Of a stretch of 64,000 nt of DNA, positions 32,028 through 54,946 are shown piece by piece (the stretch's first letter is position 1; each line of letters begins with the position of its first letter). A model generated the notes under the pieces. That model did not search any database. It was not told the origin of the DNA and saw only the letters and a list, made by a program, of their open reading frames with translations. This DNA is from Eledone cirrhosa (lineage: Eukaryota). The translations under genes and the position numbers were made by a program. The stretch is taken from positions 19,096,001 to 19,160,000 of the forward strand of contig OZ024752.1 in assembly GCA_964016885.1 (NCBI GenBank). Reading direction: 5' to 3'.

Positions 32028-32225
32028 ACATTGAAATCAATCGACTTGAACAGTCCTGACCCCCAAAACTATAAACACCTGAGTCCAAATCATCATTTGT
32101 TTATATTTGAGAAGTTTGGTCTGAGAATTATGGCTGAACCAAATGATCTTTTTAATCCCTATCGTTTAGTTGTGGATGGTTTTATTGGAGAAGATCAGTG
32201 TCAAGAATTGATAAACTTAGTCAAT
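32028..32225 (+). CDS. P3H: P3H/leprecan-like gene, exon A (start of dioxygenase module 1): TLKSIDLNSPDPQNYKHLSPNHHLFIFEKFGLRIMAEPNDLFNPYRLVVDGFIGEDQCQELINLVN
   Basis: Poly-T acceptor ...tttttaag| and donor |gtaagt; 198 nt, phase 0-0. RLVVDGFIGEDQCQELINLVN matches the recalled P3H1 segment RVVMDGVISDHECQELQRLTN. Upstream exons not identified. Confidence 0.85.
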
Positions 32226-32304
32226 GTAAGTATTTCAGTTAAACTGTTTATTTTTCTTCCTTATCCTCTTCAGTGCCACAGACGAGATAACTCGCCCTAA
32301 CATG

Positions 32305-32812
32305 TTTGAACTCTTTTCCAACAGTTTATAACTTCAACTTCAAAGTTATGAACTCATTTCCAACAGTTCATAACTTCAAAGTTATGATCTTGTTTCCAAC
32401 AGTTCATAATTTCAAAGTTATGAACTCATTTCCAACAGTTCATAACTTCAAAGTTATGATCTTGTTTCCAACAGTTCATAATTTCAAAGTTATGAACTCA
32501 TTTCCAACAGTTCATAACTTCAAAGTTATGATCTTGTTTCCAACAGTTCATAATTTCAAAGTTATGGACTCATTTCCAACAGTTCATAACTTCAAAGTTA
32601 TGATCTTGTTTCCAACAGTTCATAACTTCAAAGTTATGAATTCATTTCCAACAGTTCATAACTTCAAAGTTATGAACTCATTTCCAACAGTTGATAACTT
32701 CAAAGTTATGATCTTGTTTCCAACAGTTCATAACTTCAAAGTTATGAACTCATTTCCAACAGTTCATAACTTCAAAGTTATGATCTTGTTTCCAACAGTT
32801 CATAACTTCAAA
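32305..32812. repeat. 36-bp tandem repeat, about 14 copies, mostly alternating variants, each with an internal hairpin
   Basis: Unit ttcaaagttatgaactcatttccaacagttcataac; gttatgaac/gttcataac are inverted. Confidence 0.95.
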
Positions 32813-33618
32813 GCTAGATGGGGTTACTAATTTATTAATGTGATATTTGTCAATCATTCAGATATGTGTTGTTAATAAATGTTAGTTTAAAAAAATAGTA
32901 ATTTTACTGACAAAAACTGGCACAGCAACTGTAACAGTGTAAAATATACACGGCAGTCAACAGGTTAAAAGCTTACTTTTGAGTATAACATACTTGGACT
33001 TGATGTTTGAAAGAAGGCCATTGGTTTCTTTGGATAGCCATGAAACATAATAGCTTTAAAAGAGTTAAAGTTTGTCTCAAGCCTAGAGGCTCATCAGGTC
33101 AGAGCTTATCATGCTTTTGTTGGTGTTAAGTGATTGACAGCGCAAGATTGCCACCTAGAACAGGATGCTAGTCATAGCAGTGTTAACTCCCTGCTACTTC
33201 AGGTACTCTGTTTAGCTGAATGTACTGGAGCAATGTGAAATGGCAAAACGGTAACAAAATCCCACTTTGGAATGGGTGTTTTAGCCCATTCCACGATGGT
33301 TACTAGAAAGATGTTTTTCCAGCAGATAGAAAACAACCTTATCTAATTAACTGTGTCAAACTTTTGTGACAATTATCGACAAAAATAGAACAAAATTTAA
33401 AAAGACTCACCAGCGGCGTTAACAACATGCCATGATCGCTCATGATAATAATAATGATAAATAAAACAATAAGATTGCTCTCCTCATACTAATGAATGAG
33501 TAAACAAAATACCTTGAAACTATTCATTCTTCATTCATTCAAGACTAAAATTCCTGTTTACCTTTACTTAGTAACGCAATCTTTATTAATTTTGTCATTG
33601 ACATGTGTTATATGTATG

Positions 33619-33651
<33 letters not shown>

Positions 33652-34055
33652 TATGTATTTATTAAAATAACAGATTAAAGCTTAAGCAAAGAATCGCTGC
33701 TTTCACCCTTAACGGGATCTTCTGAAACTAAAAAAATCAATCTGTGGATGCAGAAGTAAATATTTCAAAAAACGTTGTAACCGAAGGAAAAGAGAAGGAC
33801 GATACTTTGGTTTGTGAAGACGTTCCCTGGCAATGAACGGAAGCAAAACGAAGATAGTACGTCGTTATATGGAGCGATGAGAACAATTACACACAGACAA
33901 AAAGCCAAAACCACGTTTATGGTATAAATGGAATCATTAGACTAATATTCTATTTAGGAAACTGAATGATTCTCAGAGTTTGGTTTTATATAGTTTATAT
34001 ATATATTATCCTTATCGAGCCCTCTTCACATTTTAGTCTTCACATTTATTATTAT

Positions 34056-34112
<57 letters not shown>

Positions 34113-52007: not shown

Positions 52008-52672
52008 AGGCGGTGGATTGGCAGTATCGGTAGAGGGTCGGACGCCATGCTTTGACGCATAGAGTTAAGCCCCTTGCCATTCTGAGTTCAAATCCCACCG
52101 AGGTTAACTTTGCCTTTCATCCTTACGGGTTCGATAAAATAAAGTACCAGTAATGCACTGGGTAATTGCTGGCCTTATGCCAAAAGTAGAAACAATTATT
52201 TTTGAATATTAAAAGGGCAGTGGATTGGCAGTATTGGTAGAGTGTCAGACAACGTTTTGTGGCATAGAGTTATGCCCTTTACGTTCTGAGTTCAAATGCT
52301 GCTGAGATTAGCTTTGCCTTTCATCCTTGCAGGGTCAATAAAATAAAGTACCAGTAATGCACTGGACTCAATTTAATCGACTTTCTCCTCCTCCAAAATG
52401 ATTGGCCTTATGCTTAAATCAGAAACCATTGTTTTGAATATTAAACGAAAGATAGTGTATTTCATGAGAAATATCCTCACAAAAGGGTTAAATATTCTAC
52501 TGTACTACATATAATCTGCCTCATTATCTATAGCTTAGTTACGTCCCTTTACGATCTGAGTTCAAATCCCGCCGAGGTTGACTTTGCCTTTCATCCTTAC
52601 AGGGTCGATAAAATAAAGTACCAGTAATGCATTGGGCAATTGCTGGCCTTGTGCCTAAAGTAGAAACAATTA
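52008..52672 (+). mobile_element. Cluster of family 1 SINEs
   Basis: Two full copies and one partial copy. Confidence 0.8.
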
Positions 52673-53537
52673 TCTATATATATAAAACTGAGGATGTCTG
52701 TCTGTGTGTATGTGAGTTTGAATCCCTAAAACTCAAGACTGTTTTCAACCGACTGTTTTCAAACTTTACACATGTAATACTTATGTTTCAGGGAGTGGTC
52801 TGAGCCAAAAATATTTCAAATTTTCAATGCCCTAGGGACCGCATTAGGCGATTTAGCGATCTCTCTCTATAATTCTTAGTCTTTCTCTTTTTAGATAGAT
52901 ACATACATATAACGTCGCGCCCTTATAATATCTGTCTGTATGTCTGGCTGTCTGCATTACGTCACTTCCCTGAGGATGTCTGGCTGTGTGTGTGTGTGTC
53001 TGAGTTTGAATCCCTAAAACTCGAGAAGTACCCAACCGATTTTTTTGAAACTTTACATGTGTATTACTTATGTTTCAGGGAGTGATATGCACATAAAATT
53101 CAACATTTTGAAAAACTGCGTTTTTTCAGGTTTTTAGGTTTTTTTTGAGGCGTTACGTCAGACCGATTTCCTTGAAATTGTAACTATGTATTAGTCAGTC
53201 TCTTCTTCATACCGTGAACAAAGAAAATCCAACTTTTTTTATGGCCTAGGGCCCGCATTAGGTGAAAAAAACTTCATTTTTTCAGCTTTTTAGGGCTTTT
53301 TGGAGGTCTAACCGATTTTCCCAAAATTTTAAAGCATATTATGCACAACATAAAAAAAATTCATTTTCTTGATCCCCTAGGGCCCACATTAGGTGAAAAC
53401 CTGCATTTTCCTGCCTCATCGAGGAAAATCTTAAAGATTATCCAGCCATCAGAGTATTCGGTTTATTTTCTTTACATATTGTCCAGGCATGCAGTTTTTC
53501 CACGATTATCCCGTGCAACGCCGGGTACCACTGTTAG
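52673..53537 (+). mobile_element. Non-autonomous Helitron-like element
   Basis: Begins A|TCtatatatataaaa; ends with hairpin cccg-tgcaacgc-cggg about 12 nt before TTAG|T (CTAG-like); internal sub-repeats. Confidence 0.6.
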
Positions 53538-53717
53538 TACACATATATACTCAAGGAATCTATACATACTAATATAATATTTATGATCTTTACTTCTTCA
53601 TTCAAAAGTTCTATACTTATTAATACTCATCATATACATCTAACCCCCTTGCTTTAGTATAACCTCTTGCTTTAGTATAACCAATAATACACTATATAGA
53701 TAGATAGATAGATATAT

Positions 53718-54179
53718 AATTATTATTGACTAAAATAATAGGAGGTTGGACTGGTGAAATTCCTTGAAAGATTTATTTCAGCAAACACTATGTACATTTC
53801 AGTGACCAGGTTATGTAATATCCTGGTGACATCATCGGGATGTATATTGCATAATAGTCATATAATAAAGGAATAATGGTAAACACAATCCAAGAGGCTA
53901 TAAGGAGAAGCCAGTGAGCCAAACTGACAACTGGCCCTCTTGATCGCATTCGAGCCAAAAACTTTTTTCCTCTGTTTTTTATCTGCTTTCTCTCCTTACA
54001 GCCTCTTGGATTGTTTACCATTATTCCTTTATTATATAACTATTATGCAATAAACACCTGATGATGTCACCATGATCATATGAAACCAGGCCACTGAAAT
54101 GTATATAGTGTTTGCTGAGATAAATCTTTTGAAGGAATTTCACCAGTCCAGCCTCCTGTCATTTTATTCAATAATAATT
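53718..54179. mobile_element. Penelope-type fold-back element (~180-bp imperfect arms)
   Basis: Left arm 53718-53900 is the reverse complement of ~54000-54179; related sequence at 30640-30950 and 39200-39430. Confidence 0.7.
54052..54113 (+). ncRNA. Minimal type I hammerhead ribozyme
   Basis: aaacac-CTGATGA-(imperfect stem II)-GAAA-tgtata-TA-gtgttt. The opposite arm has tgtaca but a mutated core (CCGATGA). Confidence 0.55.
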
Positions 54180-54850
54180 AACTCCGTTCTCACACCACCA
54201 ACAAAAGATTCAACATCAAAGACGGATGAGTTGCATAATGTTGAGTGCTTTTCCTAATATTACATGATGGTTGGCTATATGTAATGACCAGTTCTCTCCA
54301 GTGAACCACCAAACTTAAATTTAGTATATATATATATATATATAATCAGGATGAAATCAGTTTGAAACTGATTAGACCATTACTCAACAGAGTACTCGAT
54401 ACTTGAAGTAGTAGAGTATAGTTATATTATAAAGAGTCGCGACCTGACTCAGCAAATGTACTGGGGTCAATTTAACTGACTTTCCCCTTGCCCAAAATTG
54501 CTGGCCTTGTGCCTAAATCAGAAACAATTATTATTATTGAGAACAGTTGGTTAGCAGTATTGTTAGAGCATCAGATAAAAATGATTTGTGGCATTCACTT
54601 ACGGCCTTTTATTTTCTGAGTTCAAATCTCGCCAAGGTTAGCTTTTCCTTTCATCCTTACGGGTTTGATAAAATATAGTACCAGTCATGCACCGGGGTCA
54701 ATTTAATCAACTTTCCCCTCCCTCCAAATTGTTGGCCATGTGCCTAAATTAGAAACCATTATCATTGCTAACAATTACATTAACTTCAATTTTCAGTGAA
54801 ATGTTTTTAAAGTGTAATGTTTTTAAAATTGATGCTTTTATTTATTACAG

Positions 54851-54946
54851 GCTGGGGGATCGTTAGGGGACGGCTATGACAGAGAAGCTTCTCCCCATTC
54901 TGCTAATGAGTATTTTGTGGGCCTGAGTATCCCAGGTGCTATCGAG
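54851..54946 (+). CDS. P3H: P3H-like exon G1 (module 2): AGGSLGDGYDREASPHSANEYFVGLSIPGAIE
   Basis: ttttatttattacag| acceptor and |gtatta donor; 96 nt, phase 0-0. Matches P3H GDGYRGQTSPHTPNEKFYGVTVFKALK. Confidence 0.85.

Follow-up and report, generated by a model that had tools for sequence, protein, structure and literature searches.

The closest described relatives of the gene analysed here are the vertebrate collagen prolyl 3-hydroxylases P3H1-3 (LEPRE1/LEPREL1/LEPREL2; human P3H1, PDB-codes: 8K0M and 8K0F), which share with it a signal peptide, a leprecan tetratricopeptide repeat (TPR) domain (PF23557), a dioxygenase module with an HxD..H iron triad, two arginines for 2-oxoglutarate (2OG), a tryptophan and a retention signal for the endoplasmic reticulum (ER). 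According to the structural report, human P3H1 binds iron via H587, D589 and H659 and 2OG via R569 and R669; activity is much reduced in alanine mutants of H587, D589 and H659, and is also lowered by an alanine at R669 and by W675L (PMC11381544). The base of the human complex is formed by the pseudo-symmetric TPR domains of P3H1 and CRTAP, and the collagen-binding sites 1-4 are located on TPR helices (PMC11381544). The three vertebrate isoenzymes have been tied to chordate duplications (PMC3973637), while the origin of the P3H family is said to need further characterization (PMC7619536). Here we describe a P3H gene of Eledone cirrhosa that runs through C12:19096001-19160000, a 64-kb stretch referred to as the window, with window positions counted from its first letter. 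In comparison to P3H1-3, the gene carries an extra degenerate dioxygenase module (M1) between the TPR domain and the active module (M2), and an alternative pair of exons for the GDGY..SPH loop; vertebrates have three enzymes as well as CRTAP and SC65, whereas one gene was found in the Eledone genome. The two-module P3H is real, widespread and apparently undescribed.

Two other known systems resemble this layout in part. OGFOD1/Tpa1/Ofd1, the uS12 prolyl 3-hydroxylases, likewise consist of a tandem of one active and one metal-free double-stranded β-helix (DSBH) domain, and by analogy the predicted activity of the Eledone protein would be organized in a similar way; in 2015 OGFOD1/Tpa1 were the only 2OG oxygenases known to have tandem DSBH domains (PMC4396695). 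They have the catalytic domain first and neither TPR domain nor signal peptide, whereas in the present protein the order is reversed, with the dead domain first, in an ER collagen enzyme with a TPR domain. OGFOD1/Tpa1 are the first Foldseek rows beyond P3H1 and CRTAP, with 519-578 columns aligned at 10-11% identity and an rmsd of ~22 Å, and therefore a separate origin is indicated. Unlike in OGFOD1/Tpa1, the duplication is still traceable here by introns and 26-30% identity, and some lineages have both triads. No OGFOD1/Tpa1 was among 3 phmmer matches in the PDB; a cuttlefish-type relative matched human P3H1 with E=5e-120, and P3H1 was also the top fold match. The second comparison is with CRTAP and SC65 (P3H4), which are also inactive leprecan-family parts accompanying an active P3H domain (PMC7619536). 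These are separate TPR-only proteins, however, while M1 is a predicted dioxygenase-fold domain without TPR inside the enzyme chain.

Exons A-G (Table 1) all have AG/GT ends, follow each other in the phases 0,0,1,2,0,0 and are stop-free when joined, so that their positions, phases and frame, proposed earlier by a model that saw the letters only (the sequence-only reading), stand. That reading had also spliced exon F to exon G, which need not be the case: a six-frame motif scan of the window for GDGY..SPH first revealed exon H, an overlooked tandem paralogue of G. Searches with tblastn over 224 kb around the window located four TPR-region exons upstream and exons I-L downstream; PF23557 matches four upstream exons on the same strand and extends the tblastn set by two, back to C12:18,817,584; the gene spans ~380 kb in total. 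The first exon opens with a hydrophobic signal-like stretch, and joining A-F to G, H or both and then to I-L yields a stop-free frame in each combination, ending with KEEL-stop in exon L. The domain order is signal peptide, leprecan TPR, M1, M2 and KEEL, and with the signal-like start, the TPR domain, the full residue set of M2 and the KEEL C-terminus the sequence features of the leprecan/P3H family are present. From the signal peptide and KEEL we infer an ER location, and the splicing in Eledone cirrhosa is inferred from the gene models of relatives; exon F is present in 4 sequencing runs, with no RNA run among those listed. In a set of 120 candidates, exon F matches 5 proteins, which come from Octopus, Argonauta and an Acanthosepion-containing cluster; it is 63-74% identical to 5/5 of them, all cephalopod-type P3H proteins, so that the likeness is not due to chance.

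The two modules arose by intragenic duplication, with the junction inside exon F. M1 (exons A-F) and M2 (F-L) align in blastp with E=3e-18 and 24% identity over 252 columns, which makes a chance likeness untenable, and the introns of M2 (after F, G/H, I, J and K; phases 0,0,1,2,0) have the same position and phase as five introns of M1. The intragenic duplication with matching introns claimed in the sequence-only reading is therefore confirmed. The same holds for its description of an iron-less first module followed by an intact one. The segment between the two cysteines comprises 7 residues in M1 (NNKWHGQ) and 22 in M2, HPVHAD among them, and DPVGVK stands in M1 where M2 has DYHGVK. The GDGY..SPH loop, the DLSHPVHAD loop and the PAY..RDY segment are also gone from M1, while CGR, QRC and the Cys pair are retained. 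All three ligands of the iron triad are missing in the M1 of the window and in 3/3 other cephalopod genera, and of the six human P3H1 residues M1 retains only the equivalent of R669. M2 keeps all six, namely the equivalents of H587, D589, H659, R569, R669 and W675 (HAD, DYHG, VCR, QRC, MWY). Judged by these residues, M1 is very likely non-catalytic in cephalopods. For M2, the complete residue set together with an identity of 80-89% among cephalopods points to P3H activity, and M2 very probably hydroxylates collagen prolines in the ER.

Two 2OG profile matches in the full protein had been expected. A hidden Markov model (HMM) of the module built in this analysis indeed gives two, but Pfam gives a single significant one, PF13640 on M2; in M1 it finds PF13759 at E=0.0026, below the cut-off, and no PF23557, so no TPR was detected there. 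The layout was probably overlooked because Pfam marks one 2OG domain and because the public sequences are named as ordinary P3H1-like proteins.

A search with the two-module query gave 685 matches, the best 120 of which were examined with the module HMM; 58 of these proteins have two module matches and 62 have one. All 48 two-module proteins that are named come from molluscs, annelids, nemerteans or Lingula, and the other 10, including P0110 (a fragment match), have no taxon name. The single-module proteins comprise 50 named arthropods and deuterostomes, none of which shows the two-module layout (0/50), 9 proteins without taxon name, and 3 lophotrochozoans, which are Lottia (a partial model), Owenia and Watersipora. 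A search of representative sequences adds Helobdella, Patella vulgata and further two-module cases. The layout is present in 39 named genera of Lophotrochozoa, spread over molluscs, annelids, ribbon worms and one brachiopod. Judged by sequence databases, it is the norm in lophotrochozoan proteins. The sequence-only reading had made the novelty of the architecture conditional on its not being a described norm; the layout is common in databases, yet no description of a two-module P3H was found in the literature searched (titles and abstract starts, with subscription journals and supplements outside; Capellini 2008 could mention it). The Logan contigs behind the cuttlefish-type full-length proteins without HxD in M1 measure 3.5-6.3 kb and are likely transcripts.

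We compared the residues in 40 rows, one protein for each of the 39 named genera plus the window, comprising 33 molluscs (4 cephalopods and 29 gastropods or bivalves) and 7 non-molluscs. The His of HxD is in register in the M1 of 0/33 molluscs and 3/7 non-molluscs (Lingula, Capitella and Paralvinella), while the distal His of M1 is found in 0/4 cephalopods, 27/29 gastropods and bivalves, and 7/7 non-molluscs. The R669 equivalent of M1 is kept in 40/40 rows; the second 2OG arginine is lost in 4/4 cephalopods and 17/29 other molluscs, and the W675 equivalent in 33/33 molluscs. In M2 of molluscs, HxD is present in 32/33 (the Potamilus model is aberrant at this site) and the distal His in 33/33; the M2 models of Lingula and Capitella are incomplete. 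Living lineages form a graded series, from both triads (Lingula, Capitella, Paralvinella) through distal His only (most gastropods and bivalves) to none (cephalopods).

The sequence-only reading had suggested dating the duplication by relatives, and it proves to be old. A quick tree of 69 modules separates the mollusc M1 copies (15 rows, SH-aLRT 99) from the M2 copies of molluscs (15 rows, SH-aLRT 96), each on a branch of its own, and therefore, on this sequence evidence, the duplication is older than the split of cephalopods, gastropods and bivalves. One M1 clade across phyla has a support of 86 in a reduced 45-row tree (24 rows dropped) and a p-AU of 0.69 in 66 rows. Two further proteins of the survey have unusual layouts. 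P0171 (643 aa, a JGI protein) has two P3H modules with both full triads and no TPR, and its modules are sisters in the tree (SH-aLRT 96), which suggests a separate duplication. P0292 (879 aa, a Logan protein) has two P3H-like modules with HAD motifs on either side of a P4H-like segment, again without TPR.

M1 is open in frame in 39 named genera, and it has 209/290 residues identical to Octopus sinensis, vs 156/173 for exons I-L. Together with its predicted fold, these values indicate that M1 is maintained rather than decaying. Between mollusc classes the identity is 29% for M1 vs 57% for M2. AlphaFold2 was run on an alignment of 58 sequences with the O. vulgaris protein in first place, and the model has a mean pLDDT of 80, with 82 over M1 (residues 401-610) and 87 over M2, and a pTM of 0.52. 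Fold searches with the whole model ranked human P3H1 and CRTAP first and Tpa1/OGFOD1 next; the VIA rows span 619-861. A DSBH fold for M1 is suggested by the homology to M2 (E=3e-18), by the pLDDT of 82 with a matching strand pattern, and by PF13640 as first Atlas match (0.91, 157 shared features); the fold search was carried out with the whole protein rather than M1 alone. Most of the 26 columns conserved in ≥80% of mollusc M1 are Cys, Gly and hydrophobic positions of the common core. A motif specific to M1, E-x-x-L-R on the long helix, is conserved at its three positions in 94/91/97% of 33 mollusc M1 across three mollusc classes and is not conserved in M2. By alignment it lies directly after the segment equivalent to human Q526/E527, which in P3H1 contact CRTAP (PMC11381544).

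Exons G and H are identical in 13/35 positions and share the phase 0/0. The loop from GDGY to SPH has 4 residues in G, the canonical length as in human P3H1, and 10-11 residues in H in molluscs with a readable motif. Gene models of relatives, which form the evidence on usage instead of junction counts, contain G only, H only or both (O. sinensis X4, X3 and X1/X2; also Haliotis, Ruditapes and Lineus), and models with neither exist for Haliotis rufescens (X5), Lingula (X6) and Ruditapes (X6). The pair is found in models of Octopus, Haliotis, Ruditapes, Mytilus, Ostrea, Aplysia, Bulinus, Lingula, Lineus, Paralvinella and Helobdella, and full-length Logan proteins of the cuttlefish cluster have H only in 4/4 cases. 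It is likely that G and H are used as alternatives. Over G and H, 70/70 residues are identical to O. sinensis, vs 156/173 for I-L (Fisher p=0.004), which suggests extra constraint on both exons. In the model the G/H stretch is a low-confidence loop between strands (pLDDT <50 at 676-682), and we consider it the probable equivalent of the β2-β3 finger, which closes over the peptide in PHD2 and CrP4H (PMC4396695). That the choice between G and H changes site specificity is a suggestion we hold with somewhat less than even confidence. No complementary 11-mers were found between the 400-nt flanks of F, G, H and I, and thus there is no sign of RNA-pairing control of the pair.

Three observations concern the same exons. 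In Owenia fusiformis, two models of a single-module P3H (P0058 and P0165) differ in the GDGY..SPH exon, and therefore the alternative pair exists there without M1. The Lingula anatina model X1 (P0145) has a third, more diverged alternative exon after the G- and H-type exons of module 2. By eye, a pyrimidine-rich acceptor lies at window position 55088-55108, 141 nt past exon G, and the short frame that follows it contains a stop; splicing to this acceptor would truncate the protein behind G, and the product would lack an active site.

Profile and protein searches of this genome revealed neither a second leprecan locus nor a CRTAP locus: with PF23557, a starfish CRTAP-like protein and a single P3H module as queries, only this locus matched (5-6 candidates scored each, a lower bound). 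Among 604 candidates, a weak search for short TPR-only proteins related to the octopus TPR yielded a single fragment. Ten TPR-only representatives were looked up, 8 of which are named (arthropods, tardigrade, nematomorph, echinoderm) and none lophotrochozoan, and 0/39 TPR-only rows fall inside the lophotrochozoan branch of a quick TPR tree (support 91). In this quick tree, where some rows may be incomplete models, TPR-only leprecan proteins are scattered in several branches beside local P3H proteins, which suggests that CRTAP-like proteins arose more than once. Because no CRTAP locus was found and the human base is built of P3H1 and CRTAP TPR domains, a homodimeric TPR base would be, by analogy, the simplest arrangement.

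How could such a protein work? The reading we favour, although with no better than even confidence, is that M2 performs collagen prolyl 3-hydroxylation, M1 is a metal-free docking scaffold, and G and H swap a substrate-gripping loop of the active module. M1 would follow immediately on the N-C linker and take the slot in which the catalytic domain of the human enzyme docks onto the TPR base; for this docking role taken by itself we see the chances as evenly balanced. M1 in that slot would hold M2 further out, and two copies of the protein would form the TPR base themselves, no CRTAP gene having been found. Through the G and H isoforms, a lineage with a single gene would obtain more than one specificity, which vertebrates owe to the P3H1-3 paralogues. 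In a wider and rather doubtful version, the lophotrochozoan gene would be self-sufficient. An early duplication would have given a double-headed enzyme, with both heads likely active in Lingula, Capitella and Paralvinella; the mollusc first head would then have become a docking pseudo-enzyme doing the structural job of CRTAP with a homodimeric TPR base, and the splicing of two ancient finger-loop exons would replace the P3H1/2/3 paralogues.

Several points weigh against this proposal. The role of M1 is read from sequence alone, and its invariant R669 equivalent and the distal His of most gastropods and bivalves are more than a pure spacer needs. In two unionid M1, an H-x-D is present but shifted by one residue from the register. 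In the AlphaFold2 model each domain is confidently folded, but the packing between domains is not fixed, as the pTM indicates. Since both-exon and neither-exon models exist, the G/H pair is not strictly mutually exclusive, and the assignment of the finger rests on position and secondary structure, not superposition. As to age, the trees are compatible with a single origin of the duplication across phyla, but a mollusc-only duplication also fits and is likewise not rejected (p-AU 0.31, 66 rows), and long branches weaken all tree inferences on this question.

Alternatively, M1 could bind collagen or act as a chaperone within the protein and pass chains on to M2, as the sequence-only reading proposed by analogy to CRTAP. 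The retained fold, the conservation of the domain across molluscs and the lack of a CRTAP match in this genome are in line with it, and substrate binding has been thought likely for the dead domain of OGFOD1 (PMC4396695). Yet mollusc M1 has deleted or scrambled the two loops on the substrate side as well as the PAY..RDY segment, and since the lost loops are those likely to hold the peptide in M2, collagen binding via the old pocket is unlikely. The analogy to CRTAP itself is not supported, because CRTAP binds collagen via TPR helices (PMC11381544), which this protein has N-terminally. We regard this explanation as unlikely overall; a docking scaffold in the manner of the dead domain of OGFOD1/Tpa1 is the better match.

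It is less probable that M1 retains a metal-free carboxylate pocket, for 2OG, succinate or a peptide acid, and acts as an allosteric regulator of M2. The invariant R669 equivalent and the distal His of gastropods, bivalves and non-molluscs would suit such a pocket, but the losses of the second 2OG arginine and of the W675 equivalent in molluscs do not, and the retained arginine adjoins an invariant Cys and may be structural. We give little credence, too, to M1 as a trapped vestige, held in frame between TPR and M2 and selected for folding only. The low identity of M1 between classes, the preponderance of Cys, Gly and core positions among its conserved columns, and the single-module models of Owenia and Watersipora agree with this idea; however, exons B-E are removable in frame as a block and the module still persists in 39 genera, and the E-x-x-L-R motif is specific to M1 across three classes.

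Finally, we consider it very improbable that M1 is active through an overlooked micro-exon or that the modules are on separate transcripts: although 2/58 frame-keeping AG..GT candidates in the C-D intron give H-V-D, their one common acceptor (45103) has 4/14 pyrimidines and lies inside a dispersed repeat (31/61 repeat matches in 224 kb cover it), the required His is missing in Octopus, Argonauta and cuttlefish, the distal His of M1 would still be missing, and separate transcripts are impossible because exon F holds both the end of M1 and the start of M2. The micro-exon, for which the sequence-only reading had called for a check, was thus rejected.

The gene offers access to two questions. The tandem of an active and a dead DSBH domain would be a second, independent case in a 2OG oxygenase, and the only one named in the 2015 OGFOD1 paper (PMC4396695) is also a prolyl 3-hydroxylase; the graded living lineages make the path from enzyme to pseudo-enzyme directly testable. 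To our knowledge, the determinants of P3H site specificity are poorly understood, and with G and H nature exchanges a single loop while the rest of the enzyme stays the same.

Table 1. Exons of the two-module P3H gene in and downstream of the window (window positions unless C12 is given).
Feature	Position	Strand	Content
Exon A	32028..32225	+	End of TPR-to-catalytic linker and start of M1 (GLRIMAE..RLVVDG..QCQELINLVN); 47/66 identical to Octopus sinensis
Exon B	40213..40266	+	18 aa; M1 counterpart of G/H; GDGY..SPH loop deleted
Exon C	43873..44017	+	Long helix with mollusc-M1-specific E-x-x-L-R motif; human R569 equivalent (2OG Arg) is Asn
Exon D	45467..45530	+	Cys-pair hairpin; 5' part carrying HxD gone; 64 nt vs 115 nt in M2 exon J
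Exon E	47005..47068	+	M1 core strands
Exon F	48682..49032	+	M1 end (CGR, DPVGVK without distal His, QRC with Arg retained) fused to M2 start (RFVADG..ECEALIDLTN)
Exon G	54851..54946	+	M2 alternative exon in phase 0/0 with a short loop (GDGY-4-SPH); agrees with the O. sinensis and O. bimaculoides models at 32/32 residues
Exon H	61854..61967	+	Tandem paralogue of G in phase 0/0 with a long loop (GDGY-10-SPH); agrees with O. sinensis at 38/38 residues
Exons I-L	C12:19,189,461-19,197,127		Downstream of window; tblastn

The introns contain several repeats. Broken retrotransposon-like frames at 21550-25911 and 34662-38260 (minus strand), with endonuclease- and reverse-transcriptase-like motifs, lie in the large introns before and after exon A. 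The F-G intron carries at its start a 340-bp stretch (49062-49402) that recurs with 90% identity further down (51824-52162), and the G-H intron has a 200-base N gap at 58699-58898. Tandem arrays occupy 6243-16000, 32270-32815 and 60900-61750, with a strong GC skew at 6-16 kb, and one intronic array stops ~100 bp short of exon H. A 120-bp partial copy (92% identical) of the 3' part of exon I lies ~400 bp further downstream, at C12:19190010-19190129, and lacks the acceptor.

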